DNA of 64,000 bases from an uncultured bacterium (GCA_965372795.1 CBDVDR010000016.1:19119-83118), one strand, 5' to 3'. Positions 19,616 to 46,312 are shown, counted from the stretch's first letter. The notes: generated by a model not told the origin, from the sequence alone. Numbers and translations: made by a program.

Positions 19616-19689
19616 GGGGTTGTAGTTCAGTTGGTTAGAACGCCTGCCTGTCACGCAGGAGGCCGCGAGTTCGAGTCTCGTCAACCCCG
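19616..19689 (+). tRNA. tRNA-Asp(GTC); integration target (attL)
   Basis: ggggttg/caacccc acceptor, cctgc-ctgtcac-gcagg anticodon arm, GTTCGAG T-loop; followed by ctt rather than cca. Confidence 0.95.
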
Positions 19690-21153
19690 CTTAATTTTCA
19701 AATTGCCCCCTTCAGCAAATATGTTGAAGGGTTTTCTGTATGTAACACAAAGACTTCCATCATCAATTGTACAGTTCGAAAGTAAGTATTTGAGCAAGTG
19801 TCTTCGATCATCGTTTGATTGATGTAAGTACAAGTCATATGCTTGTTTTGCAAGTTCGATAATCTGGCTACCCATTTCGAGGTATTCATGATTTGCATGA
19901 CGATGTTTGGAAATCTGTATTTCAATTTGGCGAAGCTCAGTATTCCACTCATAGGATTTTCTTTTCCAGAAATCTTCATCAATTAAACCATTCAACCTAT
20001 CTTCATATGCTTTCTCCTGATAGCCTCTGATACGATCGTAACGATTTTGTAAGGATTTTATAGATTTTCTTTGAAACTCTTCCTTGTCTGAGTGACTTTC
20101 ACGAAGAGCAGCTTTCAACCCCTCAGCAGCTTTTGAAGATAGTGATATTCGCTTTACTACTTCACCAAATAATTCACTGAGCCTATTTTCTTTTACTGAG
20201 TTTTTACATTTACCTTTAAACTGAGTACATCGATAATATATATACTTACCTTTTTTGATATCAGGTGTCATAGAGCATCCACATCTATCGCATTTGACAA
20301 GTCCTCTAAAAGCAAAGTTTCGTTTTGTCATTTTTGGAGTTTTCCCACCATTCAAAACTTGTTGTACAGCATTGTAGAGTTCAACTGATATGATTGCTTC
20401 ATGGATTCCGTTTTCATATAAAACATTCTTGTACTCAAAATACTTACCTGTATAGATTTGATTTTTGAGAATTCGATGAATTCCTGCTTTGTTGATTTTC
20501 TTTCCGTTCACAGACCTCAAGCCTAAATTATATGCGAACTCTTCCAAAAACTTGAGAGAATAGCGTCCGGTAGCATACTCTTCAAAAAGTCTTGCCACAA
20601 AAGGAGCTTTTTGAGAGTCTACATAAATCAAATGGTCTTGTAAATTTCTCATATATCCAATTGGAGATTTTGATGGCCACTGACCAAGAGAAGCTTTTTT
20701 ATTCATACCTTTCTTCACTTCTTCGGACAAATTGTCTATATAATTCTTTGCCATGAGAACCTTGATGCCATGTACAAACTTCGAATGAGATGAACTTTCA
20801 CTTGAGATAATCCCACCTTCTTTGACAAGATGAACTATAGTATCCAAATCTTCAAGATCAACAAAATCTCTGAAGTTGCGATAGAGTCGATCAGTTTTTT
20901 CAACCAAAATTGTTCGAACAAATGGATTAGCTTTTATAAAGTCGATCATCTGACCATATTGAGTTCGACCTACTGATTTTGCTGTCTCCTCATCAGTATA
21001 TTCGTGCACAACCTCAAAACTATTCGTTAGTGCATAATCTCGTAACAAGTCGAGTTGTGCATCTATAGAAAATCCTTCCTCAGCCTGCCGCTCAGAGGAA
21101 ACTCGTGCGTAAATAACTGCTTTCTTTTCTATTTGTTTCTGATATTTTTTCAT
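19681..21153 (-). CDS. Large serine recombinase (resolvase, recombinase, zinc-ribbon and coiled-coil domains)
   Basis: YARVSS catalytic Ser, TDRLYRN, PIGY, HEAIIS, CDRC...YYRC; stop codon lies inside tRNA-Asp. Confidence 0.95.
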   Translation of the reverse strand: MKKYQKQIEKKAVIYARVSSERQAEEGFSIDAQLDLLRDYALTNSFEVVHEYTDEETAKSVGRTQYGQMIDFIKANPFVRTILVEKTDRLYRNFRDFVDLEDLDTIVHLVKEGGIISSESSSHSKFVHGIKVLMAKNYIDNLSEEVKKGMNKKASLGQWPSKSPIGYMRNLQDHLIYVDSQKAPFVARLFEEYATGRYSLKFLEEFAYNLGLRSVNGKKINKAGIHRILKNQIYTGKYFEYKNVLYENGIHEAIISVELYNAVQQVLNGGKTPKMTKRNFAFRGLVKCDRCGCSMTPDIKKGKYIYYRCTQFKGKCKNSVKENRLSELFGEVVKRISLSSKAAEGLKAALRESHSDKEEFQRKSIKSLQNRYDRIRGYQEKAYEDRLNGLIDEDFWKRKSYEWNTELRQIEIQISKHRHANHEYLEMGSQIIELAKQAYDLYLHQSNDDRRHLLKYLLSNCTIDDGSLCVTYRKPFNIFAEGGNLKIKRG

Positions 21154-21184
21154 GGATCATATTACCGATATTATCCGCTATATG

Positions 21185-21400
21185 TCAACGGATATTTTTT
21201 TTGGTTCCTTTCTCTTTTTTCTTCCATTCATGTAAAGTTGTAAAAAAACCAGCAACGTTTGTGTTAATTTCATCGGTGCAGTCAACAGATATGTATTCTC
21301 TTGATAAAATACTCCAATGAAATCGGCTTGATCTCAAGTTCTGCTTCAAAGTAGATATTGAACTATCACTCAACCTATCTTTTGTTTGCTTTCGAGTCAT
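21185..21400 (-). CDS. Small hypothetical protein upstream of the recombinase (possible directionality factor)
   Basis: 71 aa, co-oriented and overlapping the Rep-like gene; function inferred from position only. Confidence 0.4.
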   Translation of the reverse strand: MTRKQTKDRLSDSSISTLKQNLRSSRFHWSILSREYISVDCTDEINTNVAGFFTTLHEWKKKEKGTKKNIR

Positions 21401-22565
21401 AGGAATTCTCCTTTCTTGAATTCAGCTTATTGTCTGAGATGAAATCTATATAAGACTGCAATAAGTTTTTGATATCCTGTGGAACTTGATATACACCTTT
21501 GTCAATACGAGTAACCAGCCCTTGATTGAGAAGTTTGGCAAGAAGGTACTTGGATGAGTTATTGGCTATCACTCTACCAGTCGTTGCAAGGAGAGATATC
21601 AACTTTATAAACTGTGGATGATTTTTACACGCACGACTCAGATTGTAGAGGATTTGCCCCTTATCTGACTGTCCCGCCAATGCGGATTGAGATTGCTCAA
21701 AAAATTTGAGTATATTTGTGATTGATCGCTGATACCAGCAATCGATAATATGGTCGAGAGTCACTATGGTGTTCGATCCAATCACAGAGGTGCCAACAAG
21801 TTCTCGGATACGCCTACTGTTGAGTAGAGTTTCTACTCGCAAGGAGTCGACAAATTTCGGATAAATCATTATTCTCTCATTCTTCAACGGAAAAGCGGCA
21901 AGTCCATAGGAATTACGAGTTATTTTATCTCGTGGTAATAGTACTGTATAAGGCTTTGCTTCGTTATTTTTGAACATAGATTGAAAGAGCTTACGGTTTT
22001 TTTCAGTAAATAAGATCGCATCTTCTATGAACATATCCCAATAAAGTTCAAGATGTGTAATAGATATTGAGGGTTCTGTAAAGCTCAAATTATTTGAGGT
22101 TGAAGACTGCTTCATGATTTCAACGATAGATCCAAGTAAATCTTCGAGAGTATTGTGTAGTAACGACCTTGTTTCAGCTGCCAGAATCGCTCGATCATGA
22201 GTTGTGTATAAATCCTGAGGTAAAAAGTTATCATTATCATCCAATGATTCTAAAGTCAAGAAATTGAATGATTTATGCCTTAGTATACGAGTAGGATTGA
22301 TTGTGACATCCATAAACAAGGTTACAGAGTTTGTGGTTCGATTGTGATAAAGTTTCATTTCTGCCAAAATTCGGTTTTGACGTCTTGTACGGAGTTTCAA
22401 GAAGGCATATTTCTGATAGCTATGTCTTATAGTGAAGAGATCGTTACCAAGATTTACAACAGTCCTTGCGAATTCATCTGAGTTCATCCCAGCAGCCGAA
22501 AAACCAGCGACTTTCATCTGTACCTTATCTATCATGACCATCTCGGATCTGAGAATATCAATCAT
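21375..22565 (-). CDS. Putative replication-initiation-like protein with C-terminal wHTH
   Basis: ITHLELYWD and IMIYPK...LRVETLL motifs reminiscent of rolling-circle Rep (gene II/X-like); LLNQGLVTRIDKGVY wHTH-like end. Confidence 0.45.
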   Translation of the reverse strand: MIDILRSEMVMIDKVQMKVAGFSAAGMNSDEFARTVVNLGNDLFTIRHSYQKYAFLKLRTRRQNRILAEMKLYHNRTTNSVTLFMDVTINPTRILRHKSFNFLTLESLDDNDNFLPQDLYTTHDRAILAAETRSLLHNTLEDLLGSIVEIMKQSSTSNNLSFTEPSISITHLELYWDMFIEDAILFTEKNRKLFQSMFKNNEAKPYTVLLPRDKITRNSYGLAAFPLKNERIMIYPKFVDSLRVETLLNSRRIRELVGTSVIGSNTIVTLDHIIDCWYQRSITNILKFFEQSQSALAGQSDKGQILYNLSRACKNHPQFIKLISLLATTGRVIANNSSKYLLAKLLNQGLVTRIDKGVYQVPQDIKNLLQSYIDFISDNKLNSRKENSYDSKANKR

Positions 22566-22963
22566 GACAAGAATCTTTCAATGTAAAATTTTTGACGTAA
22601 AATACATCTATAGTATAAAGGTGAGACCATTGACTTGTTGTTTAATGCGATTAGCATAATAGTTATAATTTGGCACAAAACATTATCTCCTTATCCAACA
22701 AAATGTTACGAGATTCATCTTCTTCTCTTAATCTATTGTACAACTACCTAAGTTGACTATAAGTAGAGTTAGTTAGTAAGCATGATATTTTTTTGTTATG
22801 CGATTTCAGTCAGGAGAATGGAGTTAAAAGGACGCATTATTTGCATAGCAAACCGCTCATGGACTTATTAAACAAGTGTCGGCTCGTCGCATCGGGTTGA
22901 GACAGAAACTGCCTCAGCGACCTTGCATTTGAATCTATCAATGCATCCATACAAGATTAACCT

Positions 22964-23000
22964 AATGATACTTATAGTCCGTAGACCTATAAGTATCATT
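22964..23000. promoter_or_regulatory. Palindromic operator (C-box-like) upstream of the XRE gene
   Basis: Perfect 14-bp inverted repeat aatgatacttatag-N9-ctataagtatcatt. Confidence 0.65.
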
Positions 23001-23037
23001 GGATTATCCTACATATATCTTAATTGATTGGTAATAG

Positions 23038-23265
23038 ATGATGGATGATCCAAAGATAAAATTCGGAAAAATGGTAAGACAGAAACGACTTCAGTGGAAT
23101 TATTCTCAAGAAGAACTTGCTCATCGTTGTGATCTCGACAGAACTTATATTGGTGGAGTTGAACGAGGAGAACGCAATATAAGCCTAATAAATATTTGTA
23201 AAATTGCCAAAGCTTTGAATACTACACCCAAAACCTTACTCGACTTCGGTAAAATCGAGTATTGA
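23038..23265 (+). CDS. XRE-family HTH regulator (R-M controller C-protein-like)
   Basis: SQEELAHRCDLDRTYIGGVERGERNISLINI. Confidence 0.9.
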   Translation: MMDDPKIKFGKMVRQKRLQWNYSQEELAHRCDLDRTYIGGVERGERNISLINICKIAKALNTTPKTLLDFGKIEY

Positions 23266-23416
23266 ATTTAATTATTGTGTATTTCGAAAAATTCCTTCAA
23301 AAGACCTCATAGATTTTTAATTAAATAAACCTATAGATTTATATTTTCCGCTTGTATGGAATGTTGACTATAAGTATCATATTGTAAGCGCAAACTAATA
23401 TATGAGGGTATAATCG

Positions 23417-24115
23417 ATGTTTTTAAAAGTACTTTTAATATCAATAATTTTATTGATTAATATTCCATTTTCTGGATATTCACAGACAAAATTTATTGAA
23501 AATCGTAAAAAGTTAGAAATCGCAGTAAATGAAAACATATCTACACATTACTTATTCAAAAATTGTCAACTTCAGGATGATAACAAATGGTTAAGTATTG
23601 AACTAAAATCAAAAACTTGGAAGAATCCTAATGACACAAAAGCTCTAATTGATTCTATCATAAAAATTACTAAAAACTTTGCACCGTTTAGTGCTAATAA
23701 AAATTCGGAATTTCAAATTTATATTGATGAACCTAAAAGTGGATTCCCTATAGCAACTGTACGATCTTATTCTACAAAGACCTACTATGATTATTCATTT
23801 TCTGAGTGGCAAACGAAAGCTAAAGAAAAGTTATTCGGAATAAGGCAATCTACTCAGTATGTTTCAGAAGAAATAAAGTTTGGCAGGCCAATAATGTCAA
23901 TGTGGTCTGGTGTTAAGCTATATTATGGATCTGGCTCATCAAAAAAGTTTGTTGGTAAAATAGTATGTTTTAGTGGTGATCTTGTTATGATCAAATATCC
24001 GTCTGGGTCTATAGAATCGAAATACAGAAGCGTAATTATAGACTTGAAAGGAAAGTGGTATATTGACAAGAATGATCCTGCTTTAAATGCGATGGAGTAC
24101 TATACTTGTGACTAA
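23417..24115 (+). CDS. Secreted hypothetical protein
   Basis: Signal peptide, GAGG RBS. Confidence 0.6.
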   Translation: MFLKVLLISIILLINIPFSGYSQTKFIENRKKLEIAVNENISTHYLFKNCQLQDDNKWLSIELKSKTWKNPNDTKALIDSIIKITKNFAPFSANKNSEFQIYIDEPKSGFPIATVRSYSTKTYYDYSFSEWQTKAKEKLFGIRQSTQYVSEEIKFGRPIMSMWSGVKLYYGSGSSKKFVGKIVCFSGDLVMIKYPSGSIESKYRSVIIDLKGKWYIDKNDPALNAMEYYTCD

Positions 24116-24273
24116 TAACACCAAATTGAGTTTGCCAATTATTATTTTTGAATTTTTTATCTTTTGCCCTTATAAATCGCCTCATATTTACTTAAACAAA
24201 TGTGAAACTATCCACTTTACAAATCCTTTCTTACCGCTTATTTTTATGTAATTGTACCACAGGAGCTTACGTA

Positions 24274-24918
24274 ATGATCGAGTTGTTTCCGGTTGATAAA
24301 GTCAACCAAATGAGATGCAAATTGGAAACAGCCAGAGCTCCGGCAGGTGATACTCTTAAACAAAATGGATGGCACAAGAGTGACCTGTCACCAAATGTAT
24401 TACTGGAAACGCTTGAAAGTCTTTGGCTTAAAGAAGGATATACACTTCGAGGATACTTATATAAATCAGGTGAAAACGGAAACGGCATTGTTTGGGCAAT
24501 GCCAATCGACTCACCTTTTCCAGAACCTTCAGAGTGCACCAGTCTTACCGATCAGTTTCTTGAACCACCAAAACCAGAACACGCTCTTGATGATTTCATG
24601 GAAGCAATTGATGGTGATCACACAGCTTGGTCATACATGTGTTCCTCAATCCTTGGCCGAGAATTACTTGAGTTCGGTGCAAGATGGCATGGCTGTGAAT
24701 GGAGTTATGAAAGGATTGTATCTTTTAAGAAGTTATATAGAATATGTAGGTTAAAACCAATAACTGATAAATCTTTCATTTATAATCCAATTGTAATTAT
24801 AAATCAGATTGTAATTTGTTCTTTATTTACTATTCATGAGCAATATGGTTTTATTAAGGAGAACAGAGACATTTACCAGAAAGGGAATTATGAAAATAAT
24901 AATAACGATCAAAAATAA
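24274..24918 (+). CDS. Hypothetical protein
   Basis: AGGAG RBS before MIELF; RELLEFGARWHGCEW motif; C-terminus looks degenerate. Confidence 0.5.
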   Translation: MIELFPVDKVNQMRCKLETARAPAGDTLKQNGWHKSDLSPNVLLETLESLWLKEGYTLRGYLYKSGENGNGIVWAMPIDSPFPEPSECTSLTDQFLEPPKPEHALDDFMEAIDGDHTAWSYMCSSILGRELLEFGARWHGCEWSYERIVSFKKLYRICRLKPITDKSFIYNPIVIINQIVICSLFTIHEQYGFIKENRDIYQKGNYENNNNDQK

Positions 24919-24947
24919 TAAAATTTGGGATAAATATTATACCTTAA

Positions 24948-25793
24948 TCAACTTACTCGAATAGTTATTTTTTTTGATTTCATATTCCTCATAAAATTAC
25001 TAATATGCCTTAAACCATCTATAAATGCATACCTACATTCTCTATAAGTTTTATGTGCATCTTTTTTCGATCTTGGAGCATGAACAGCTGGATTACCAAA
25101 ATCACTTACAAAAGATTTCATCCCTCCAATAATAGCAGAAGTATCGCTAAACTGTCTGGCATCATTCATGTCATTCAAAATATCCGCTAAATCTTTTGAA
25201 AGAGTTGAAGTAGTTAGCCAATCTTTTTTGATACTTGATTTAACAGCACTTTTGACCATTTCTTCAATAAGGATTCGGAGATCACCTACACCTGAACGAG
25301 GATCATTTTGATATTTATCAAATGCATCAAGTACCCTTACTTTGACTTTACCTTTAATGTCCTTTGTTTTTTCGTTAAATTCCTTTCCTTTTATATGTTG
25401 AACTAAAGGTACAGTTGACTCTTGAAATTTCGCATCACCATTATCATCTACTATTATTATTCCATATCCATGAGATAATAATTTCTTGAATTCTGCTTTA
25501 TTTTTTTTATCGTTGTATAGCCCTTCAGTACATACACAATAAATTTCAATTGGTATAGTTACTTCTATGATATCAGCCAAATATAATTTAAAAACTGTTG
25601 GGTAAGGCATTTGAGATACTTCAGCAACTAAAATTCTTTTTCGAGTAGTTTCAAAATGTAAAGCAGGTGCCCAATCGATCTCATGTGAGATCGGTTGCGA
25701 TACTTTTGGTTGTGTTTGGAATCGCTCACTTAAAAATTTATGAGCAGAATTGAACAAAAAATCATCTCCAGATGATAAGCCCTTGTATGACAT
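24948..25793 (-). CDS. Hypothetical protein, possible PD-(D/E)xK-like N-domain plus HEPN-like C-domain
   Basis: Last gene of the MTase operon; LVAEV...GYGII and FGNPAVH motifs; fold assignment is inference. Confidence 0.45.
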   Translation of the reverse strand: MSYKGLSSGDDFLFNSAHKFLSERFQTQPKVSQPISHEIDWAPALHFETTRKRILVAEVSQMPYPTVFKLYLADIIEVTIPIEIYCVCTEGLYNDKKNKAEFKKLLSHGYGIIIVDDNGDAKFQESTVPLVQHIKGKEFNEKTKDIKGKVKVRVLDAFDKYQNDPRSGVGDLRILIEEMVKSAVKSSIKKDWLTTSTLSKDLADILNDMNDARQFSDTSAIIGGMKSFVSDFGNPAVHAPRSKKDAHKTYRECRYAFIDGLRHISNFMRNMKSKKITIRVS

Positions 25794-26759
25794 TTACTTG
25801 CCCCCCAAAATTCTCTGGAGGAATTCTCTAAGATTATTTAATTTTTCAACAAATTCATCATCCAATTGAGAGACAAGATTCTCCTTCAACAAAATATCAA
25901 AATAAGCGTTTAAGTGATCAATTTGACTGATTGCCTTTTTTTCATCATAACCAAATTCTACTGTCCTTTCATACACCTCACGAATGCCTACTTCATTATT
26001 GGAATTGAACAAACTTTTCAAAGCAGATTCAGCTTGAGACTTTTTGATACCGATATTATCGATTGCAGTAGCAATTTTGGATAATTGCCTAAAATCTGTA
26101 ACAGCTCCAATTGTCCCTTCACGGTACTTGTCAATAAGCGTATTTCTTATTCCGTCAATATTGGATTCAAATTGAGGAAGTCTTTTGGTAATAGTCTTGA
26201 GAGACCGTTCCATTTCAAGAAAGAAATCCTCTGTAATTTTCTGACGAGATTTAGGAAGCTGCAATTCTTCCATCAACATTTGCTCAAACTGTGGAGGCAT
26301 CTCCATAAGTAATTGGCATCTACGTATCTGCCCTCTTGTAAGACCAGTCTCTTTACTCAACTCTATCTCATTTGGTGGGTACCCTTTTTCTTCTGTAAAT
26401 AAATCAATAATTCGTCCTAAGTTTTTTGCAATTGTAAAGTAATCCCACTGTTCTCGAAGTGCGTGAATATTCGACATCAACAATAAGTTTTCTAATTCTG
26501 AAGGACGATCCTGTATAATTGCTGGGATTTTATCAAGAGCAAGTTTTATTGAACATCGCCATCTTCTCTCTCCATCAATGAGAAAGTACTTGTCTTTATG
26601 TTCAAAAACTGAAATTGGAACTTGAATACCATGTTCAGAAATAGACACCATAAGGATCTCCATTTCTTCTTGACGAAAAACCATTCTTGGATTTTCAGGG
26701 TTTGGCTGAATATCTTTAGGTGATATTTGCTTTAACCTTTTTATTTTTGTTTTATCCAT
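25794..26759 (-). CDS. ParB/Srx N-terminal domain protein
   Basis: IQPNPENPR, SISEHGIQVPI, LIDGERRWRC. Confidence 0.85.
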   Translation of the reverse strand: MDKTKIKRLKQISPKDIQPNPENPRMVFRQEEMEILMVSISEHGIQVPISVFEHKDKYFLIDGERRWRCSIKLALDKIPAIIQDRPSELENLLLMSNIHALREQWDYFTIAKNLGRIIDLFTEEKGYPPNEIELSKETGLTRGQIRRCQLLMEMPPQFEQMLMEELQLPKSRQKITEDFFLEMERSLKTITKRLPQFESNIDGIRNTLIDKYREGTIGAVTDFRQLSKIATAIDNIGIKKSQAESALKSLFNSNNEVGIREVYERTVEFGYDEKKAISQIDHLNAYFDILLKENLVSQLDDEFVEKLNNLREFLQRILGGK

Positions 26760-27990
26760 ATGCTCTCCTACCCAATATTAACAACTCCTTTGCGGAGTAT
26801 TTTCCATATCCTTTTGAAGCACCCAGAGTAGAGTGCTCTATATCAACTTCGTTAGTAATCTCAACTGAACGATACTTTTTTTTCATAAGTTTGGGAAGTT
26901 GTTCTTTCGCATTCGGTAATAATCCTACTTCAGGATAACTGATAATAAAATCTGATCCAATTCCAGCGACAGAATCTATTAAATCAGTAAAAGCGTTCAT
27001 TACTTTTGGAGAACTACAAAAAGGTGACTGAAATCGATCCCCCCTATACCTACCAACTCCTGATGCTGTTGGATAGTCGTATAGTATCAAGGTTTCATAC
27101 AGATGATAATATCTGGAATATTGGTCATTAGTATAAGGAGGGTCAGCGTAAACAACAGCAGGTTTAATTTTATAACGCATCATTTTATTCACGAGTTCAA
27201 GTGCATCTTCATTAAAAACTCGATTGGTACTTCTCCAATCTGCCCAACCAATAGGAACCAATTCATCAATCGCATCTAACCAGTGAAGCCATACTGATTT
27301 CTTTCTTTGATTTACAAAATGCCTACAATTATTATCCTTTATTTTGAGATATTGTGCGAAATGTCCAGTTGTTGTAGAAACCTTACAAGTAGCTTGGCAA
27401 AGTGCAAGTATCCACCATCGATGTAAATCTTGATCGATAACTCTATTCTCTCTAAGAACATCAATAGAATATCTAATTGAATCTATCTCGATAGCCTGTT
27501 TTAAGCCTATATACCCACCAGCAAATGTGATAGAGAATAAACGATATGGAAACGTAGATGATTTTCTTTTGAGTCTTTTACTTTCAGACTGAAGTTTTGA
27601 GTCATTACCAACATGAGGTAGCTGGCTGTAAAAGTCTCCAAAACTCTCAGGACTTGAGGTTACCAGTTCTTCTAATTCTTGATCAATATATTTTACAAAC
27701 CTATTGTATAATTTTTCTTTATTCCTCTCAAAATTACTGTATGCTTTGTCGGCGGCTTCTATTGATGTCAAACTGATGTTCTTGGATTGAAAAAAAGCTT
27801 TTGCAACTGTAGATGCGAATACTTGAATATCATTACACCAAACTGATCTTTCAGTGCCTATTGATTCTCCAACAGCACATACTCCTGAAAATAAGTCAAG
27901 AAAAGGACCTCTCTTCAAGTTATGTGTAATTTCAGCGATTGTAGGAGCTATCCTGCGCTTAGTTCCCATGTAACTTACCGATATTGTCAA
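26752..27990 (-). CDS. DNA adenine methyltransferase (alpha-class order)
   Basis: YMGTK, DLFSGVCAVG, ND, YADPPY...QYSRYYH. Confidence 0.88.
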   Translation of the reverse strand: MTISVSYMGTKRRIAPTIAEITHNLKRGPFLDLFSGVCAVGESIGTERSVWCNDIQVFASTVAKAFFQSKNISLTSIEAADKAYSNFERNKEKLYNRFVKYIDQELEELVTSSPESFGDFYSQLPHVGNDSKLQSESKRLKRKSSTFPYRLFSITFAGGYIGLKQAIEIDSIRYSIDVLRENRVIDQDLHRWWILALCQATCKVSTTTGHFAQYLKIKDNNCRHFVNQRKKSVWLHWLDAIDELVPIGWADWRSTNRVFNEDALELVNKMMRYKIKPAVVYADPPYTNDQYSRYYHLYETLILYDYPTASGVGRYRGDRFQSPFCSSPKVMNAFTDLIDSVAGIGSDFIISYPEVGLLPNAKEQLPKLMKKKYRSVEITNEVDIEHSTLGASKGYGKYSAKELLILGRRAYG

Positions 27991-28358
27991 TCAACCTCGC
28001 TACTCATTAAAATGGATAACTAACAACTTAATTTTATTAAAATACAAATGTAAAGGAGCTTTGTCAAGTCATCAAACCCCTCATAACGATATAGTAATAA
28101 GCAACTTAAGATTAAGTTGAAGGATTGGATGAAAAACCTACTGAGTTATATTTATTCTGACTTATAAAACCACCTATAGAATATAACAATTTACAGAATC
28201 AGATCATGAAATTTTCAACTTTAAAAATAAACACAATTAAGATTTAAAAGGCAATTGCACAATACTACTTTTTACAATAATTATTCTTACCTAATTAACA
28301 TTTTATCTGAAATGTGAGATACTTTATTTTCTTTTTTTTAGGGATGCATATAGTATAA

Positions 28359-29348
28359 TTATGCTTTTTCACACAATTCCTTTTTCCATGTTAACTTCCC
28401 GAAGTAATCCAGGCACCACAAGCAAGGGTATGGATAGAGACAATTTTGATCCGACATGCTGCTCAACCTAACGCTTGTAAATTTAGACAATAACTCATAA
28501 TGGCGTGCAATACATTTTTCTAATCCTTCAACATTCACACTCCCCAACATCTCTTTTCCCATAATTGAGGGTTTATTTCCATTACATACATGAGACAGAT
28601 TACAGCAAAAAACTGCATTTCCCAAATGATCAATAGAGTATGATTGTTGATAAGCATTGCAATTAAATAAGGCACTATCCTCTCCCCAAGAACCCTCAAT
28701 CATTATCTCTGTCTTGATGTTTGGAATAATGTCACTTTTAATGAATAAGAAGATTTGTTTCGTTTCCTCATGAGAGGGTAAAAGATTGTTCTCCAATAAT
28801 CGTGGTGTAGGAACAAGAGTAAGAAACGAGTGTTGGTTTGCGCCTAACTTTGATCCCAAAAGAGCAATCTCTATAATCTCTTGTATATTAGCATTGGTCA
28901 CTACTGTTTTAAAGCTTAACGGCAATCCTTGAAGTCGGCTGAGATTAGCTGCGTCAATTACTTCAGAAAATGAGTCATTTCCTCTTAAAGTATTATGTGA
29001 AGTAGGTGATGCACCGTCCAAACTTAGACATATACTATCTAAGTATCTTTTTACCATTGGATTGGACAATACTGGTAATGTCCTTTGTTTGAACTGATAT
29101 CCGTTGCTCACAAAACTGAACTTCAGTTTTCTTTCTGCTAAAGCGACTAACATATCAGGCCAAGCAGGATGAAGTGTGGGCTCACCACCTGTAAGACTAA
29201 TATGAGTTATTCCAAAACTATACGCACTATCTAATATTTCTATAAAGACATCCAAAGGAAGATGTTTTCTGGGCTCCAATTTATCCCTCAGACAGTGAAT
29301 ACAATCACGGTTGCAAACATTCGTTAGATCTATAGATAAATCTGGCAT
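28359..29348 (-). CDS. Radical SAM enzyme with Cys-rich SPASM/twitch-like C-terminus
   Basis: CNRDCIHC, TGGEPTLHP, SLDG; C-terminal C...CC...C...CLWC. Confidence 0.9.
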   Translation of the reverse strand: MPDLSIDLTNVCNRDCIHCLRDKLEPRKHLPLDVFIEILDSAYSFGITHISLTGGEPTLHPAWPDMLVALAERKLKFSFVSNGYQFKQRTLPVLSNPMVKRYLDSICLSLDGASPTSHNTLRGNDSFSEVIDAANLSRLQGLPLSFKTVVTNANIQEIIEIALLGSKLGANQHSFLTLVPTPRLLENNLLPSHEETKQIFLFIKSDIIPNIKTEIMIEGSWGEDSALFNCNAYQQSYSIDHLGNAVFCCNLSHVCNGNKPSIMGKEMLGSVNVEGLEKCIARHYELLSKFTSVRLSSMSDQNCLYPYPCLWCLDYFGKLTWKKELCEKA

Positions 29349-29365
29349 ATAATATAACTCTTCAA

Positions 29366-29827
29366 CTAATAGGCTCTTTGACCGCTTCTTCTTGCTTGTC
29401 TTACTGCAGAGCTTACACGACCCGTTACAACAGCTCCTATTTTATGAAAATGCTCACCCTCCACTTCCATAATCGGCCTTGTATAAGTTATCTTCTTAGC
29501 ATTAGGTTTCGTTGTAATACTGACGCACTCTTTCTGTATCTGTGATGATAATAGATTGTGTCGCTTAAGGTCAACTATAAACCTATCAATGTCCTCCGAG
29601 ACATTTTCTATATCAATATTCTCATATCTTGCCGATACCAATGACATTACAGAAGACAATGGAATCCCATCAGTACTTTCCTTGATCAAACGCAAAATGC
29701 AGCATGCGGGGTCATTCAACCAAAAAGACTGCTTTGTTTCTAAATCAACAATTAATCCCTCGTCCTCAAGTGTCGATAAGATAATATCGCTTTTGAGGTT
29801 AATTACTTCTTTTATTCTCTCGTCCAC
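29366..29827 (-). CDS. PqqD/RRE-domain protein with C-terminal leader/precursor-like tail
   Basis: EDEGLIVDL...FWLN...RYE...EDIDRFIVDL RRE fold, then YTRPIM plus a short Arg/Ser-rich tail. Confidence 0.7.
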   Translation of the reverse strand: MDERIKEVINLKSDIILSTLEDEGLIVDLETKQSFWLNDPACCILRLIKESTDGIPLSSVMSLVSARYENIDIENVSEDIDRFIVDLKRHNLLSSQIQKECVSITTKPNAKKITYTRPIMEVEGEHFHKIGAVVTGRVSSAVRQARRSGQRAY

Positions 29828-30442: not shown

Positions 30443-30522
30443 GACATCCAGTTGTGATAATCGTCTCGTAGAGCCCGCCATTTTTTGGAGAACCCTGATG
30501 AAATCATCGGGGTTTTTTCATG
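30443..30522 (+). repeat. att-like scar 1 (attR of the recombinase element) plus terminator
   Basis: atcgtctcgtagagcccgcca-ttttttggagaaccctgatgaaatcatcggggtttttt. Confidence 0.8.
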
Positions 30523-35307: not shown

Positions 35308-35553
35308 ATTTACTCTGCCAATCGGTGGGGTAATTTTTTTAGCATACAGTTGAGATCATATAATCAAGTCAATAAGAGGCTTTATAAAACCCACTTTAAA
35401 AATGGGGCACCCGGTTTAAAAGATGGACTAACTAATTTTGTTGATGTTCAATGATGAATTTCTAAAAACTGAGATAATATTTTTGATTTGAAATTTTTTT
35501 GCATAAAAGAAAATTTGAATGAAGATTTTGCTGAAAAGAGAACATTTGTAATC

Positions 35554-36069: not shown

Positions 36070-36495
36070 ATTACAATTATATATCATATTAAAAATAAAA
36101 AACAACCTCCTTATAAGATAATTTTTTGGCTCCCCCTAGTGCCAGCCCGCCATAACCACCGATCAGGCGTGTCGGGTGGGAAGGAAGTTCGCACATCACA
36201 GCTCGTAAATATTGTCATAATAGCAGCGGTTGCCGCCCTAATGTATGCCTGTAAAGTTTAGTATTCTCTTTTAAGGGTTCTTATGATACTTCACAACTTA
36301 TTGTTTTCCAACGATTTCCATTTAGTATTTTGAAACTTGTTGAAATTTCAATCTCGAATATCACAAAAGTTTTCTGAGAGTGATATTGGCACCGCTTTTA
36401 AAAATCATTTAACTTCATGCGTTTACATCACAACCCTAAGTGCTTATCACATAAACTTCGAACTTTTACAGAAATATATTTCTCCACTTATCTCT

Positions 36496-39327: not shown

Positions 39328-39373
39328 CATACATCAAAAAGTTGCAAAAGTTGTCCAACGAATCCCGTCTTTT
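39328..39373 (+). repeat. att-like scar
   Basis: catacatcaaaaagttgcaaaagttgtccaacgaatcccgtc. Confidence 0.8.
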
Positions 39374-39562
39374 GTAATTGCCTGTGTAGCACTACGTTAC
39401 AAGCTCTCACTATTTATTTATTCATAATTTATTTAGACTTCTTTGTGTTCCAATCATAGATGTTTTCCTTGTTATTGTTTGCTTTAAAGGTCTAAATAAT
39501 CTATCTTGTAATTAGTTAATAAGTATTGAATGCTATTGAAAAGTTAATGAGGTAGTCGGCCT

Positions 39563-42205
39563 ATGGCGGCAAACGAATTTGATGATGACCAAACAAGATC
39601 GTTTACTCTATTAGTCGCTGGTACCAAAGTCTCGCATTACACAATCATCTCCAAGATCGGTGCCGGTGGAATGGGTGAAGTCTATCTGGCAGAAGATTCT
39701 CAATTAGATCGTAAAGTTGCCTTAAAATTCCTCCCCCCTCATCTCTCTCAAAATAAAGCCAGTCGTGCTCGATTTGCACGTGAAGCAAAAGCTGCCGCCA
39801 AGCTTGATCATCCAAACATTGTCCCAGTTTACGAAGTTGGTGAATTTCAGGACAGACCGTACTTCGCTATGGCGCATATTGAGGGTCAATCTCTCAAGGA
39901 AGTTATCAGGGAAGGAAAGCTAACAGTACCCAATGCGGTTGAATACACCAAACAAATATGTGAAGGACTTTATAAGGCTCATGAATCAAATGTTGTACAT
40001 CGTGATATAAAACCTGCCAATATAATTATCGACAATGATAATAAACCTCGCATCCTTGATTTTGGATTGGCTACAGTTCAGGGTGAAGAAAAGCTGACCC
40101 AAACCGGTTCAACATTGGGTACGGTTGGCTACATGTCGCCTGAGCAGATCACCGGCAAGAGTGTTGATCATCGCTCTGATCTGTTTTCAGTTGGAGTGAT
40201 TTTATATGAAATGCTCACCGGACGACGTCCTTTTGAGGGCGACAACGATGTTTCTATTCTCAATGCCATAACCAGTTCGACTCCGGAACCGGTGGCTCGT
40301 TTCAAGTCTGGCGTTACAGGAGAATTACAACAAATTGTAAACAAAGCCCTCGCAAAAGATTCTTCCGTTCGCTATCAGCATGCTGATGGGATGCTTGCTG
40401 ACCTGAAGGGTCTTAGCATAGAGTCCAAGAGCCGGGTGAAGAGAAAGCTTCCCCTGTGGATAGCTGTAACAATTGTAGCTTTGGTTTTAGGATTTTTCGG
40501 TCTTTCTCAGATACTTGACGAGCGCACTTTCTCCTCGGGGCCAACCAGACTCGCCGTGCTACCTTTTGGGAATCTGGGTGAGAGAGATAAAGACTATTTT
40601 GCTACAGGGATGACCGACGAAATCATTAACAAGCTTATCTCAATCAGAGATTTGAAAGTGATTACAAGACAAAGTGCGGGACGGATGAAACAGGAGGGGA
40701 TGGACGTCAGCCAGATCGGTAAAGAACTAGGGGTTGACTATGTTCTGGATGCTTCGGTTCACTGGTTGAAAAGCAGCAATGGTGCCAAGCGTGTTAAACT
40801 GGTAACACGTTTAATTAAAGTATCTGACGGGTCTGTTCACTGGGGAAAATCATATGATACGACCATGACAGAGCTTTTTGACATTCAAGCGGATATGGCC
40901 ACAAGGATTTCCGAGCAACTTGGGGTTGTGCTTACTCCTCAAGAGAAGATCATTGTCGCGGGAAGAACCACGAACAGCGACGAAGCCTGGGATTATTTTG
41001 TTCGAGGAGATAGTTATTATAATGAAGACCCATACTCTGAGAAATATCTTAACCTGGCTCTGGAAATGTATAATAAAGCTATCGAGACAGATTCTGGTTT
41101 TGCCAAAGCCTATACGCAAAAATCGCGAATGTACACCCGATTATATTTCTACAACATCAATGTAACCGATTCCATTAAGTCGCTTTCTTGGGAAATGGCT
41201 AATAAGGCAATTGAAGTCTGCTCTGACCGCTCTTCTGATCACGAAGGTCACATGGCCCTTGCAAATTACTATTATCGTTGTGAAAGAGATTATGAGAGAG
41301 CCTTAGAATCGTTGGATAAGGCGTATGTAGGGATCGGCGGAAAGGATAACGCAGGATATCATCATTTTGCTTCTACTTACTTACGTCGTATGGGAAGATG
41401 GAAGGAAGCCTACAAACATGGAGCAATCGCCGCCGAAATGGAACCGAAAAACTTCCACTTACACAATGAGCTTGGTGGCACACTCATCTTGATGCGGAAA
41501 TACAGAGAAGCGGAAAAGTCTTTTCGAAAGGCAATCGCGCTGAAACCTGATTATTTTGTGCCGTACGAAATGTTGACTGAGGTAAGTATCAGTTGGCAGG
41601 CTGATACCGAGAGGGCGCGGGAAATCATAGAATCTTCATGGCATAAAATTGAAGATACCGCTCGCTGGGGGGATTTCATGATAACTCTTAACGGAATGGA
41701 AGGGGATTTTGAGGCCGTAAGAAACCATGCCAATTCATACTCGGATAAAGCATTGTTATATGATTGGCAGGATATTACAGATTCTGCTGTAATTTATTGG
41801 GATTCAGCTCTGATTGAAAATCAAGAAGAATTAAAGGATAAAACGCTGACTCCCATCCAATGGGGTAGCCTTGGAAAATTGTATGCTCGTATGGGAAACC
41901 GTAAAGAAGCAATAAATCATATTAATAAAGCATTGGAATTGATGCCTATGTCGAGGGATGCGCTTGACGGAACTGATCATCTGATTCAGCTTTTCTATTG
42001 TTATGTTTTCTTCGGCGAATTTGAAAATGCTAACAATCAAGCTGAGAAGATTCTTCAAGTCCCTGCCTATTTTGATATTGGACAACTCTTATTGGATCCC
42101 GACACACGTAAATTTATCAAACATCCAGGCTTTGCGCGCTTGGTTAGTGAGTATGGCAATGAATATCATAAACGGCTTTATATAGAAAAAGTCGGACAGT
42201 TGTAA
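39563..42205 (+). CDS. Hanks-type Ser/Thr protein kinase with TM, TolB-N-like domain and TPRs
   Basis: GAGGMGEVY, VALK, HRDIKPAN, DFG, YMSPEQ; LAVLPFGN; TPR repeats. Confidence 0.92.
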   Translation: MAANEFDDDQTRSFTLLVAGTKVSHYTIISKIGAGGMGEVYLAEDSQLDRKVALKFLPPHLSQNKASRARFAREAKAAAKLDHPNIVPVYEVGEFQDRPYFAMAHIEGQSLKEVIREGKLTVPNAVEYTKQICEGLYKAHESNVVHRDIKPANIIIDNDNKPRILDFGLATVQGEEKLTQTGSTLGTVGYMSPEQITGKSVDHRSDLFSVGVILYEMLTGRRPFEGDNDVSILNAITSSTPEPVARFKSGVTGELQQIVNKALAKDSSVRYQHADGMLADLKGLSIESKSRVKRKLPLWIAVTIVALVLGFFGLSQILDERTFSSGPTRLAVLPFGNLGERDKDYFATGMTDEIINKLISIRDLKVITRQSAGRMKQEGMDVSQIGKELGVDYVLDASVHWLKSSNGAKRVKLVTRLIKVSDGSVHWGKSYDTTMTELFDIQADMATRISEQLGVVLTPQEKIIVAGRTTNSDEAWDYFVRGDSYYNEDPYSEKYLNLALEMYNKAIETDSGFAKAYTQKSRMYTRLYFYNINVTDSIKSLSWEMANKAIEVCSDRSSDHEGHMALANYYYRCERDYERALESLDKAYVGIGGKDNAGYHHFASTYLRRMGRWKEAYKHGAIAAEMEPKNFHLHNELGGTLILMRKYREAEKSFRKAIALKPDYFVPYEMLTEVSISWQADTERAREIIESSWHKIEDTARWGDFMITLNGMEGDFEAVRNHANSYSDKALLYDWQDITDSAVIYWDSALIENQEELKDKTLTPIQWGSLGKLYARMGNRKEAINHINKALELMPMSRDALDGTDHLIQLFYCYVFFGEFENANNQAEKILQVPAYFDIGQLLLDPDTRKFIKHPGFARLVSEYGNEYHKRLYIEKVGQL

Positions 42206-42236: not shown

Positions 42237-42281
42237 CATACATCAAAAAGTTGCAAAAGTTGTCTAATGAATCCTGTCTTT
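42237..42281 (+). repeat. att-like scar
   Basis: catacatcaaaaagttgcaaaagttgtctaatgaatcctgtc. Confidence 0.8.
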
Positions 42282-42518
42282 GACCTATATGCTTGACAAT
42301 TGTTGAGCATTTTTTTGTAAATATACAAAGGCATAAACCGATTTGGCGACATTTTACCCCCATAATTTGTGTTTGTTTTTATTGGCTATATTACTCATTT
42401 TATATATTGAGAATACGAAAAAACAAAATAGAAATATTTTAGCCTATGGTGACAAACAGTTTTGATGATGTTTCCAAAAATATTTTAAATTTTTATTTTG
42501 AAAGTATGATCGTGAGAC

Positions 42519-44795
42519 ATGAATAAATTTTTACAAAAACAATTTGGTTTTCAACAGATTGAAATAAAAAAACTCAACGGCTATGAGAATCAAAACTATC
42601 TGGTTAAAAGCGAACGCGGGAAATATGTTTTTAAAACATATCTCAAAAACAGAGAATTGTTAGCACTGATTGAAGCAGAGAATGAAACACTTTTATTTTT
42701 GCAAAACAGTAAGAGTGAGAAATTCCCCAAACCAATTCAATTTACAGATGGCAGTCTGGTCAAAAATCTTAAAATAGACGGAAAAGAACGAATATGTAGA
42801 ATGCTCTCTTTCCTTGATGGGCATTTATTAGGAGAAGTAACCCACACAAAAAGCTTATTTCAATCTTTGGGAGCCTTTCTGGCTCAATTGGATAAACAAC
42901 TTCAATCGTTCAATAGCTATACCCTCAAGGCAAGACAATGGGAATGGGGTGTTCAATACTTTCATTGGAATAAAAAATACATTAAGGATATCGCAAGTGC
43001 GAAGAACCGAAGCATGGTAAGCTATTTTTTTCAACAATTTGAAGAAAATGTTGTTCCTATACTTCCTGAGTTAAGAAAATCCATTATTCACAATGATGCC
43101 AACGAATGGAATGTTTTGGTGAATGATGGAGAAGTATCGGGTATTATTGATTTTGGTGATTTGGGGTACTCTCCACTTATTAATGAATTGGCAGTAGCTA
43201 TTGCTTATTCCTGTTTCGACAAGGAAAATCCTTTGGAATGGGCATCTACCATTCTAAAATCATATCACCAAATATTGCCGATTGAAGAAAATGAAATAAC
43301 AGTTTTATACTACCTGATAGCGGCCAGACTATGCACAAGTGTATGTAATTCTGCCTATTCAAAAAAACAAAATCCTGATAACAAATATGCCTTTGTAAGT
43401 GAAAAATCGGCTTGGGGAATGCTCTATCGTTGGCTAAGAATCAATCCGATAGCAGCTGAAAACAGTTTCCGCATAGCGATAGGGTTGCATACTTTTAATC
43501 CGAAGTCAACTGACAAAATGATAAAAGAAAGACATGATATAGCGAGTCCTGTACTTGCTTTGACTTATTCGAAGCCGATTTATATGACCGGGGCAGCTTT
43601 TCAATATATGTTTGATGCCTACGGGAATACGTACTTAGACGCATACAATAATATTCCTCAGGTCGGTCATTCACACCCGAAAGTAGTAGCGGCCGGTCAG
43701 AAACAAATGGCTGCACTCAATACTAACACAAGGTATCTCTACGATCTTTTACCTGAGTATGCTAATAAGTTATTATCTAAATTCCCTGACTCACTTAACA
43801 AAGTATTCTTTGTTAATTCCGGGAGTGCCGCATGTGATTTAGCAATTAGATTAGCCCAAGCGCATACCGGGCACAAAAACATTATGGTAGTCGAACATGG
43901 TTATCACGGTCAAACTCAGACCGGAATAGATATCAGCGCCTATAAGTTTAGCAACCAAGCAGGCCAAAGGCAAAAAGACTACGTCCTTAAGGCAACTATT
44001 CCCGACACTTACAGAGGGCAATATACTACCAATGATGGCAGTGCCGGAAAATTGTACGCTACTGATGCGATTGTACAGATTAATAATTCAGACTCACCAA
44101 TTGCGGCCTTTATCAGCGAACCTATAGTAGGTTGCGGCGGACAGGTTCCTTTAGCCAGAGGATATTTAAAAGAAATTTACCCGGAGATAAGAAAACAAGG
44201 CGGAGTTTGTATTAGCGATGAAGTTCAAACAGGATTCGGACGTTTGGGAGATTTGTTCTGGGGATTTGAGGCGCAAGAAGTTGTACCTGATATTGTAATT
44301 TTAGGAAAACCTATGGGCAATGGTCATCCTATGGGAGCGGTAATAACCACAACAGGAATAGTCGAATCATTTAGTAAAGGGGTTGAGTTTTTTAGTTCAT
44401 TTGGCGGTAATCCGGTTTCGTGTGCGATTGGCTTATCTGTTTTAGAGGTGATTGAAGAAGAAAAGTTGCAGGAAAATGCGAGGATAGTGGGTGATTTCTA
44501 TAAATCACTTTTTATTGAACTTCAAAAAGAGTTTCCTTGTATTGGTGATGTAAGAGGTTCCGGTTTATTTATTGGTGTGGAATTGATAAAAAATGAAAAT
44601 AACTCAGAACCAGATACTCATTTAGCCAATCATATTAAAAACGAACTTAGAAACCGAAATATACTCATCAGTACAGATGGTCCTTTTGATAGTGTTCTTA
44701 AAACTAAACCTCCGTTGTGTTTTACTAAGGAAAATGCTCAACAAGTAACAGACCAGATCTATGAAGTGTTAAAAACATATTACTGCAAAAGATAA
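42519..44795 (+). CDS. Phosphotransferase fused to class-III PLP aminotransferase/phospho-lyase
   Basis: HNDANEWN...IIDFGD kinase motif; [16 protein letters not shown] class-III motifs. Confidence 0.88.
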
Positions 44796-44862
44796 ATGTC
44801 ATTAAAAACAAGCATTGATTAGTTTTATTCAGTCATAGTAGAACACCTGATATATTTTGGGA

Positions 44863-44943
44863 ATACATCAAAAAGTTGCGAAGATCGTCTAACTACCCGC
44901 TATTTTTTCGAGAACCCTGATGAAATTATCGGGGTTTTTTCAT
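44863..44943 (+). repeat. att-like scar plus terminator
   Basis: atacatcaaaaagttgcgaagatcgtctaactacccgc followed by aaccctgatgaaattatcggggtttttt. Confidence 0.82.
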
Positions 44944-44970
44944 ATCGTAATTTTCAGAATTCAACTTACT

Positions 44971-46083
44971 TTATTGCCAGGGTCCGTTCTTTGTAACATT
45001 GAAAAAGTATTTCCCATCAAAGCGATAGAGTCCAGCCCCGGTACCAAACCAAAGCCGTCCTTCTTTATCTTCAAAAATGCTCTGCACAGCATGCTGTATA
45101 AGGCCATCCTTTTTAAAGAAATTTCTGATGGATTTTCCATCGTAGCGGTATACTCCAAAACCCTCATCGGTAAACCAAATGTTTCCGGCTTTATCTTCAT
45201 AAATATGCCAACCCTCATAAGAGCTCAGCCCTTCTTGCTCCGAAATATTTGTAAAGGTTTTGCCGTCATAGCGGCTAATACCTTTGTGACGGGTAGCGAA
45301 CCAAATATTACCTTTCTTATCTTCTAAGATACACTGAACAAAATTATCGCTGAGACCATCTTTCACTGAAAAATTGGTTAAGGTTTTTCCATCATAGCGA
45401 TAGACGCCCCTGCCATTGGTTGCGAACCACATATTGCCTGCCCTATCTTCTATGATACTCCAAACAACCTTAGGACTGGTAACCCCCATTGAATAATCTC
45501 TCTCTAAAGCCGCAGGAATTGCAAATGGTGTAAAGGTTTCTCCATCGTAGCGACAGACTCCTTCTAAAGTACCGAACCAAATGGTTCCGGCTCTATCTAC
45601 AAATATGCTCCATACGTTATTATCACTAAGCCCATCTTTTTTGGTAAAATTACTGAATGATTTTCCGTCATATTTAGATACTCCACCATTCGTTGCGAAC
45701 CACAGGTTGCCGTTATTATCTTCTACTATGCCTTTTATTTGATTTCCACTAAGTCCTTCTTTTGTAGAAAAATAGGTAAGGGAATTTCCGTCGTATCGGC
45801 ACACGCCATCATAATTAGTGCCGAACCAGAGGTTTCCGTTTTTGTCCTGAAATATCCGGCGTATATACTCGCTAATCTGTAAAGCAGTGTCGGGTCTCTT
45901 CCTATAATCCATTCCATTGAAGTGTTCGTAGTCTGGAATATTTCGAAGTCCTTCTGGATTTGTTTGTGATTCAATAATGATATCATTTGGAAAGTTTGTT
46001 ATGTCATGTCCGTTACTTGAAGCAATTAATACTAATAGAATTAGCAGGACGTAGATTTGTTGGCGCATATAATTCCTCTTCAT
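44971..46083 (-). CDS. Secreted two-component-regulator propeller repeat protein
   Basis: Repeated EDxxGNLWFGT..GVxRYDG and ..DGL motifs. Confidence 0.88.
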   Translation of the reverse strand: MKRNYMRQQIYVLLILLVLIASSNGHDITNFPNDIIIESQTNPEGLRNIPDYEHFNGMDYRKRPDTALQISEYIRRIFQDKNGNLWFGTNYDGVCRYDGNSLTYFSTKEGLSGNQIKGIVEDNNGNLWFATNGGVSKYDGKSFSNFTKKDGLSDNNVWSIFVDRAGTIWFGTLEGVCRYDGETFTPFAIPAALERDYSMGVTSPKVVWSIIEDRAGNMWFATNGRGVYRYDGKTLTNFSVKDGLSDNFVQCILEDKKGNIWFATRHKGISRYDGKTFTNISEQEGLSSYEGWHIYEDKAGNIWFTDEGFGVYRYDGKSIRNFFKKDGLIQHAVQSIFEDKEGRLWFGTGAGLYRFDGKYFFNVTKNGPWQ

Positions 46084-46269
46084 TTGTGGTAGTTATTTTA
46101 TAATAAAATATATCATTTACTGCCGGTCTATGCCAGTTTGAACTATTGCTTAAGCATTATGTACATAATATGTCCATTTTCTTTGTTATTATACAATCTA
46201 TTGTATTGGTGTTCCAAAAATTGTTGATAATTCAATTTAATCAAAGTTTATAACAATTGAATCACGATT

Positions 46270-46312
46270 CTGAACTCCATAAAATTTTGGGAGAGTGACA
46301 TTGTAGTCGCCA
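46270..46312 (+). repeat. att-like scar, second family (distal end of the array)
   Basis: ctgaactccataaaattttgggagagtgacattgtagtcgcca. Confidence 0.5.

Follow-up and report, generated by a model that had tools for sequence, protein, structure and literature searches.

Stacked islands are known from staphylococci and from Dehalococcoides. In Dehalococcoides they lie in tandem behind a stable-RNA gene, ssrA, with repeats of the ssrA 3' end as boundaries; some have no integration module and have been suggested to be cis-mobilizable elements (McMurdie et al., 2011, PMC3146451). In accretion involving cis-mobilizable elements (CIMEs), whole composites can be transferred (PMC5704250). The tycheposon islands of Prochlorococcus contain scattered partial tRNAs and remnants; 910 of 937 tycheposons use tyrosine recombinases, a minority have a large serine recombinase (LSR), and they are larger than the units described here and often carry replication genes (bioRxiv 10.1101/2020.12.28.424599). 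We analyzed the region behind the tRNA-Asp gene of an uncultured, Zixibacteria-type bacterium, in a window of 64,000 nucleotides (nt) of contig C16 (CBDVDR010000016.1:19119-83118) from a genome of 3.35 Mb. The closest systems are composites of the staphylococcal cassette chromosome (SCC) and the ssrA islands; the locus is not an integron. The region is probably a composite island formed by repeated LSR insertion at the 3' end of tRNA-Asp, in which an autonomous element of 10.8 kb is followed by at least six blocks without a recombinase. The narrower claim that the repeated sites at this locus are LSR attachment (att) joints is one that we hold with greater confidence.

The sites were recognized by a motif of ~45 nt that is present in seven + strand copies between 30.4 and 44.9 kb, every one of them intergenic (nhmmer profile, E values from 3.5e-14 to 9.2e-9; Table 1). 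An initial annotation of this DNA had described seven copies in the same orientation whose 3' end mimics that of the tRNA, and the profile finds exactly those seven as strong matches in 3.35 Mb. The profile was built from the same seven copies, and their recovery is therefore by construction; the independent evidence for the repeat is the absence of further strong matches together with a search using a 34-nt consensus, which at up to 3 mismatches gave three matches versus 0.00 expected (100 shuffles). The next profile matches in the genome were at C7:53099 (3.4e-5) and C8:15496 (6.2e-4), and the weaker ones were coding repeats. A 29-nt core with up to 7 substitutions gave eight matches, six of them at this locus. 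Successive copies are separated by 1691, 2570, 556, 4068, 2909, and 2626 nt. The right part of the motif (AACCCCGC) is identical to the last 8 nt of tRNA-Asp, and the left part, an arm of ~33 nt, is non-tRNA sequence. As single-stranded DNA the copies do not fold better than shuffles (z from -0.88 to +1.19, with z below -1 in none of the seven). The analysis supports reading the motif as an attR-type joint, in which a conserved arm of an LSR site appears to be fused to the tRNA-Asp tail. This reading, which agrees with the earlier proposal of serine-recombinase att scars, is based on the context of the motif in this genome and in relatives.

The tRNA-Asp gene, which together with tRNA-Val gives the only Rfam matches in the window, is the left (B) arm of an occupied attachment site (attL). 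The LSR encoded by the adjoining gene, P0001, has all three LSR Pfam domains above cut-off, and the stop codon lies 10 nt inside the acceptor end of tRNA-Asp. In the relative G028, the element behind tRNA-Asp closes with a site of the same type as the copy at 30443, 17 kb away (E 2.1e-7), and we therefore assign 30437-30490 as the attR of the resident element at 19691-30473. The pairing of a tRNA end (19690 in the window) with such a joint is thus the same in G028 and recurs with tRNA-Asn on contig C7. There another LSR adjoins tRNA-Asn, and 19.1 kb behind this tRNA a copy of the motif (C7:53101) closes an LSR element of ~19 kb. This copy has the same arm as the array (2 mismatches in 29 nt) followed by GGGGGAGCTTT, which corresponds to the end of tRNA-Asn and the first flank bases. 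Its arm has an inverted partner just after tRNA-Asn, and 45 of 2000 shuffles scored as well in a test for an attP dyad. The motif had been tied to tRNA-Asp, and it is indeed nearly confined to this locus, with the C7 and C8 matches beyond it, but on C7 the arm is used with a tRNA-Asn tail. The whole genome encodes four LSRs, all of which end at or inside a tRNA 3' end (Asp, Asn, Ser-GCT, Ser-TGA); pairwise identity is 38-46% among three of these, the type-A LSRs, and 26-28% between them and the C7 LSR (type B lineage). Counted from the tRNA end, positions 9, 11, and 12 differ constantly between arm and tRNA in copies of several genomes, and for this reason the crossover would be placed within the last 8 nt.

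All seven joints show the same order of arm, tRNA tail, and sequence resembling a tRNA trailer, which includes a CCA and a T-run in four of them. A stable hairpin and then a T-run lie within 45 nt after the joint in five of the seven (z from -2.7 to -4.5). Three joints have a trailer of 58 nt in common (84-90% identity; repeat family D5), and a search of 285 genomes of the phylum (this one and 284 others) found no match beyond these three copies. The three-copy trailer is closer to the native trailers of insertion-free relatives than to the recombinase-coding flanks of occupied sites. A simple terminator scan of the array was set aside, with 15 terminators found versus 12.8 expected and only two of the five folding-supported hairpins called.

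The array contains three interleaved site types, namely that of the resident element (type A), the main motif (type B), and a second motif (type C), and several recombinase lineages therefore probably used this spot. The seven type-A and type-B joints and four other sites are all on the + strand and span 27 kb. Three further positions had been listed as divergent copies of the motif; they are att-like sites but do not represent the same motif, since the one at 32061 looks like a decayed type-A site (CAGTTCTAAC...GCCCGC) and those at 33594 (..AAAAGTTTGGGGAGAGTGAGGTCCACCCC) and 46270 belong to type C, a set from which the copy at 36356-36383 (family D20) had been missed. A sequence like the decayed type-A site is also found ~110 nt to the left of the C7 arm. 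The type-C family (..AAAAGTTTnnnGAGAGTGAGGTCCACCCCGCC) is similar to the type-B P' arm in reverse complement. Its copy at C3:82185 has the end CCACCCCGCCA, one metagenome contig fuses a type-C arm to GGTCAACCCCGCCA (a single contig), and inverted type-C arms lie 55-70 nt behind tRNA-Asp in G014 and G002.

As the initial annotation had it, the copies separate unrelated cargo blocks of 0.5-4 kb that differ in composition (G+C from 0.31 to 0.50 across blocks, per kb), and the only recombinase is that of the tRNA-proximal block. Cargo genes lie on both strands. No recombinase domain was detected by Pfam in the 14 open reading frames (ORFs) between 30.7 and 48.4 kb, and tblastn with the four LSRs of the genome (E<=10) gave no credible LSR fragment in the 16-kb array (best E 0.86). 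No conjugation or mobilisation genes were seen at the locus. The blocks thus have the hallmark of CIMEs, with att sites kept and genes for recombination and transfer absent. Phage_integrase matches in the genome number four, on C6 (two), C12, and C10, with none on C16. An ORF with a tyrosine-integrase domain was observed immediately upstream of the LSR that adjoins tRNA-Ser(TGA) (G000 C10:63807-66164).

The cargo is accessory. None of the 37 ORFs of the window other than the LSR was found downstream of tRNA-Asp in nine relatives, for which 3-20 kb of sequence behind this gene was compared, and neither ppc nor the HI0933 gene was found in G001, the sole congener. HI0933 genes are common in the phylum (190 of 285 genomes), and the closest copies, 81-83% identical, have other surroundings, with neither a tRNA nor a site. 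Of 26 related genomes, two have ppc. A match of nearly full length to the kinase-aminotransferase fusion was found in one of the 284 other genomes (G129), and the two halves of the fusion occur as separate pieces in G102 and G197. As an observation on ppc, the gene in G012 (locus L073, G012:C5, 10808-13760) is 70% identical to that of the window and stands 120 nt behind tRNA-Tyr; 98 nt past its stop codon we found ACCCCACCAC, one mismatch from the tRNA-Tyr tail. This repeat is suggestive only, as one mismatch in 10 nt corresponds to ~0.6 matches expected by chance in 20 kb.

Table 1. Predicted genes, att-like sites, and trailers of the tRNA-Asp locus, in window coordinates.
Feature	Coordinates	Strand	Basis or remark
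tRNA-Val	19466-19539		77 nt upstream of tRNA-Asp
tRNA-Asp (GTC)	19616-19690	+	ARAGORN; Rfam 74 bits
LSR, type A, 490 aa (P0001)	19681-21153	-	Pfam Resolvase 3e-20, Recombinase 5.5e-11, Zn_ribbon_recom 3.8e-10
Resident autonomous element, ~10.8 kb	19691-30473		Bounded by tRNA-Asp and type-A attR
ParB_N protein	25794-26759		Resident element; Pfam
D12 adenine methyltransferase	26752-27990		Resident element; Pfam
Radical SAM protein	28359-29348		Resident element; Pfam
PqqD-like protein	29366-29827		Resident element; Pfam
attR of resident element, type-A arm and CCCGCCA tail	30437-30490	+	nhmmer E 9.2e-9 (30443 copy)
Trailer-like unit heading block 1 (CCA, T-run, terminator hairpin)	30474-30531	+	Family D5; z -2.8
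Block 1, HI0933-like flavoprotein, ~50% G+C	30717-31961	+	Pfam 5.2e-76
Decayed type-A site	32055-32092	+	Like sequence near the C7 arm
Type-B joint 1	32134-32178	+	nhmmer E 3.5e-14
Further trailer copy	32171-32228		Family D5; hairpin z -4.5
Block 2, 287-aa protein without family match	32661-33524	+	
Type-C site	33594-33640	+	Repeat family D20
XRE-type HTH gene (33716-33973) and overlapping 155-aa ORF	33716-34380	-	Pfam HTH_3 2.8e-11
Type-B joint 2, left part degenerate	34695-34745	+	nhmmer E 1e-9
Block 3, 109-aa CxxC protein	34835-35164	+	Weak NCBIfam TIGR04104 match, below cut-off
Type-B joint 3	35260-35304	+	nhmmer E 8.9e-14; terminator 35310-35333
Block 4, nitroreductase (35554-36105) and phosphoenolpyruvate carboxylase, ppc (36496-39141)	35554-39141	-	Pfam
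Type-C site inside block 4	36356-36383	+	D20
Type-B joint 4	39328-39372	+	nhmmer E 1.5e-10
Block 5, Ser/Thr kinase with TPR repeats	39563-42205	+	Pfam Pkinase 1.1e-53
Type-B joint 5	42237-42281	+	Profile match; terminator 42289-42310
Block 6, APH-type kinase fused to class-III aminotransferase	42519-44795	+	Pfam
Type-B joint 6 with trailer	44862-44906	+	nhmmer E 1.7e-10
Further trailer copy	44896-44953		Family D5; hairpin z -3.1
Reg_prop beta-propeller protein	44971-46083	-	Pfam 1.4e-45
Type-C site, degenerate, outermost recognised scar	46270-46312	+	Likeness to 33594 and 36356

Besides the LSR and the genes named in Table 1, the resident element holds ORFs of unassigned family. Its neighbouring radical SAM and PqqD-like genes (28359-29827) could form a peptide-modification pair. 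Just upstream of tRNA-Val, DUF3179 is split across two neighbouring ORFs of 115 and 204 aa (window 18290-19342) and may represent a broken gene. To the right of the island, at 47151-50350 and 57353-58450, multihaem cytochromes (paired CXXCH, MtrC/MtrF-like domains) are clustered with beta-propeller proteins.

Among the nine relatives, four have an LSR directly behind tRNA-Asp, with 51% (G028), 38% (G025), and 26% (G027 and G029) identity to that of the window. In G001, CCCCGC links a type-B arm to the sequence found behind tRNA-Asp in G027, G029, and G011. The arm has a further junction with an ORF of 78 codons, which shares 81-82% identity with the C-terminus of the G027/G029 LSRs (E 1e-28). 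This reads as an attP-like joint between two arms, next to the remains of a recombinase gene. The ORF was rejected as a relative of the window LSR, with which it gave no alignment; it matches the G027/G029 lineage instead. LSR stubs stand behind or beside sites in both G001 and G011 (22 nt in G011).

Scans for the arm pattern found 29 loci among species genomes, 22 among metagenome contigs, and none among viral contigs; many matches are chance occurrences without the extended motif. The genuine loci are mostly from Zixibacteria or Omnitrophota, and their tails vary by locus and often end in CCA. At six loci, one or two ORFs separate a pair of copies spaced by 0.7-1.8 kb, and one metagenome contig has three copies in 2.3 kb. 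Five sites were found in 9.3 kb in G287 and five in 24 kb in G286, with types A and B mixed, and in G289 tRNA-Asp is followed by one block of 2.35 kb and then a type-B site, with no LSR within 7 kb. Relatives had been proposed as the place to look for arrays of different cassette order or content. Stacks of like architecture do exist (G286, G287, the metagenome contig with three copies, and the six two-copy loci). No cargo was found in common between the array of the window and other arrays, and two Omnitrophota loci keep gene and site order at 50-71% protein identity. An apparent permutation of cassettes between L043 and L048 turned out to be conserved synteny.

Partial tRNA-tail repeats were also observed elsewhere in this genome (G000) after tRNA-Ser(GGA), -Ser(CGA), -Gln(CTG), and -Lys(CTT) (C3:71372-83300, C13:40300-52519(-), C1:~68300-70434(-), and C3:120060-124300). 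The Ser and Gln sets carry a related arm (ATTCAAgAAGTTgtCGAAAAT), and several of these repeats have one trailer (ATACTTCGTATG) behind differing tails. The contigs concerned (C3, C13, C1) gave no serine or tyrosine recombinase match. Separately, in 5 of the 19 relatives that were compared at the tRNA-Asp locus (G005, G008, G002, G015, and G003; loci L011, L012, L014, L016, and L022) the contig ends within ~400 nt after the tRNA-Asp match, in G003 at the match itself. Such ends would be expected if insertions at this position varied between strains, because these would break assemblies.

In the account we favour, LSRs would insert units repeatedly at the 3' end of tRNA-Asp. The newest unit would be the tRNA-proximal one, a self-sufficient element with its recombinase gene adjoining the tRNA, and six or more older units, 0.5-4 kb long and free of recombinase genes, would lie behind it. 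Each unit would be closed by an attR-type joint consisting of an element half-site (P arm, ..TCATACATCAAAAAGTTGCGAAGATCGTCTAATG) and the last 8 nt of tRNA-Asp, inside which the crossover would take place, and most units would be headed by a trailer-like CCA, T-run, and terminator. The outermost unit would be the oldest. The blocks may now be passive passengers, like CIMEs or pseudo-SCC elements, which would be movable only with a recombinase from another element. As the resident attR carries a trailer, the resident element would have inserted into a tRNA followed by that trailer and the HI0933 block, with the head of the older array serving as attB.

Several observations weigh against this account. 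Plain integration into an occupied site (attL) would be expected to produce a P-P' junction, and none of the seven joints has this form; to our knowledge, canonical phage LSRs reuse neither attL nor attR. When the dyad test was applied to the type-A site in the window, 1168 of 2000 shuffles scored as well. The tblastn search left the array without an LSR remnant, and the five motif-carrying Zixibacteria genomes G285-G289 have no Resolvase-domain gene (0 of 5); in the closed genome G285, tRNA-Asp and the only copy are 443 kb apart. The identity of joints 4 and 5 is 93%, and a 29-nt box (83% identity) is common to 39559-39587, at the kinase ORF start, and 42442-42470, ~50 nt upstream of the kinase-aminotransferase ORF. 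One of these two joints may therefore be a local duplicate and not a second insertion. The G001 and G011 stubs document, for this LSR family, plain integration at an occupied site and subsequent decay; in the window, the lack of an LSR remnant and the trailer heading five of the seven blocks argue against simple decay in place. The uniform joints of arm, tail, and trailer fit units that bring their own trailer and use a recombinase in trans, or flanks that were carried by composite transfer.

Units of the former kind would make the locus an active cassette platform, with non-autonomous units whose single site comprises arm, tRNA tail, and trailer and which are moved by an LSR encoded elsewhere, be it that of the resident element, that of the C7 element, or one brought by a visitor, as CcrAB acts on ccr-less SCC elements and IntI on integron cassettes. 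For SCC, excision and action in trans have been shown experimentally. Since each unit would bring its own trailer, a usable attB would be restored upon insertion and new units could therefore always enter at the head. This possibility draws on the single form of all seven junctions and the hairpin and T-run after five of them, on the absence of LSR remnants, and on the resident element, which would have inserted into such a head junction and whose attR trailer also heads two other blocks. The single LSR-less block of G289 and the recurrence of one- and two-gene units in two phyla agree with it, and the finding of one trailer (ATACTTCGTATG) after unlike tRNA tails at the tRNA-Ser and tRNA-Gln loci of this genome suggests that trailers travel with units. 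However, sequencing runs that yielded short, low-depth contigs (near-identical contigs of 150-470 nt; best share 0.06) showed neither a circular or deletion junction of any weight nor an empty site nor an array in another order; in them, two single-contig joints (33623>34694 and 36383>42280) had sides of 22-30 nt and were too weak to count. In addition, different arrays have no cassette in common, the constant order in the two Omnitrophota loci suggests stability, a mixture of three site types is unlike a system with one recombinase, and array-bearing genomes without an LSR exist. We consider an active platform at this locus possible but rather unlikely. The broader proposal, that tRNA genes of Zixibacteria and Omnitrophota are gene-capture platforms at which mini recombinase-less cassettes (LSR half-site, tRNA tail, and trailer) are stacked, inserted, and excised in trans by modular LSRs specific for tRNA ends, is in our judgment equally doubtful.

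If flanks were carried instead, the blocks would be former host chromosome beside tRNA-Asp, or cargo of older composites, that a composite picked up on excision from an outer scar and brought with it on integration into a new host, and the trailers would therefore be genuine displaced tRNA trailers of several past hosts. Their resemblance to the native tRNA-Asp trailers of the insertion-free relatives G013, G010, G015, G007, and G030 is consistent with this, as are the variation of trailer hairpins between G286 junctions and a type-A scar with an Asp-like tail beside the type-B arm at the C7 tRNA-Asn locus; transfer of CIME-ICE (integrative and conjugative element) tandems as composites is documented (PMC5704250). 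We nevertheless regard such an origin as improbable: the three common trailers match nothing else in the 285 genomes, HI0933 homologues in G115 and G103 adjoin neither a tRNA nor a site, and an outer arm would be needed before each capture. Even less credible, and in our view very improbable, is the view of the motif as a conserved element with a regulatory or RNA function (promoter, box in a 3' untranslated region, or small RNA) that only looks like the end of a tRNA. Conservation of the arm across Zixibacteria and Omnitrophota and the presence of the motif in genomes without an LSR would be in keeping with such an element, but the motif has no Rfam family match and does not fold, its copies stand before genes, after genes, and between convergent genes, its tail changes with the adjacent tRNA, and in G001 it forms a direct junction with an LSR gene end. 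Readings as a promoter, including sigma-54, extracytoplasmic function (ECF), and Bacteroidetes-type ones, were rejected by eye, there being no constant boxes and no constant downstream gene. The motif was also considered as a live gene end. Its reverse complement reads ..GFIRRSSQLFDV and a stop, yet no ORF of more than 50 aa in this genome ends in this way, and the 51 scanned loci have no long ORF ending in that tail, with only G001 joining an LSR remnant; the open run of 12 codons in the reverse complement is not significant alone. Per-position entropy of the collected copies was discarded, as it was biased by the search pattern.

A composite island built by successive LSR insertions at tRNA-Asp thus remains the explanation we prefer. 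At such a locus, accessory genes (ppc, kinases, flavoprotein, nitroreductase) accumulate at a single chromosomal position, in phyla without cultured members in which few mobile elements are recognised. The sites also define natural pairs of LSRs and short sites ending in conserved tRNA tails, with one arm used with Asp, Asn, Ser, and Gln tails, and such pairs are raw material for site-specific genome engineering. If small units do move in trans, they would constitute a widespread cassette system beside integrons and SCC and a serine-recombinase counterpart of the integron that acts on double-stranded sites.

With integrons, the locus has in common a same-strand array of short sites, small promoter-poor gene units, and a fixed entry point. 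Unlike integrons, it has no IntI beside the array (no Phage_integrase match on C16) and no attC-type hairpin sites (none of the seven copies folds better than shuffles), and it shows mixed cargo orientation and several site types. The initial annotation had offered two alternatives, serial accretion with recombinase loss and trans-mobilised cassettes, the second of them as an integron analogue; that this second alternative would lack precedent is not supported, as recombinase-less units stacked by LSRs at a conserved gene's 3' end are known from SCC composites and ssrA islands. A literature search with most subscription journals outside it found no description of tRNA-anchored LSR stacks of one-gene units. 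Like tycheposons, the units carry cargo, target a tRNA, and would push older elements inward by successive integrations, but tycheposons mostly use tyrosine recombinases and are larger (bioRxiv 10.1101/2020.12.28.424599). In accretion of CIMEs, ICEs, and IMEs (integrative and mobilizable elements), decayed or non-autonomous units likewise keep att sites, and later integrations stack them at the end of a tRNA or a gene; there, however, most recombinases are tyrosine recombinases with long identical cores (PMC5704250).

The resemblance is closer to SCC composites and ccr-less elements, in which LSR insertion also targets a conserved gene at its 3' end, tandem stacking leaves the oldest unit farthest from the target, and units have att pairs but no recombinase; the target there is rlmH and not a tRNA, and SCC units measure tens of kb (PMC13739063). 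In the ssrA islands, tandem units also lie behind a small stable-RNA gene with 3'-end repeats, some of them without an integration module, and the likeness extends to a reverse-strand LSR by attL, to ParB-domain and DNA-modification genes, and to a conserved element-derived motif just upstream of each repeat (PMC3146451). The present locus differs from them in its tRNA target, in a common sequence of 8 nt versus 20 bp, in units of 0.5-4 kb with mostly one or two genes, and in its three interleaved site types, and no small second serine recombinase was identified here (PMC3146451). By analogy, the tRNA-Asp locus may be regarded as a miniature version of the stacked islands of staphylococci and Dehalococcoides.

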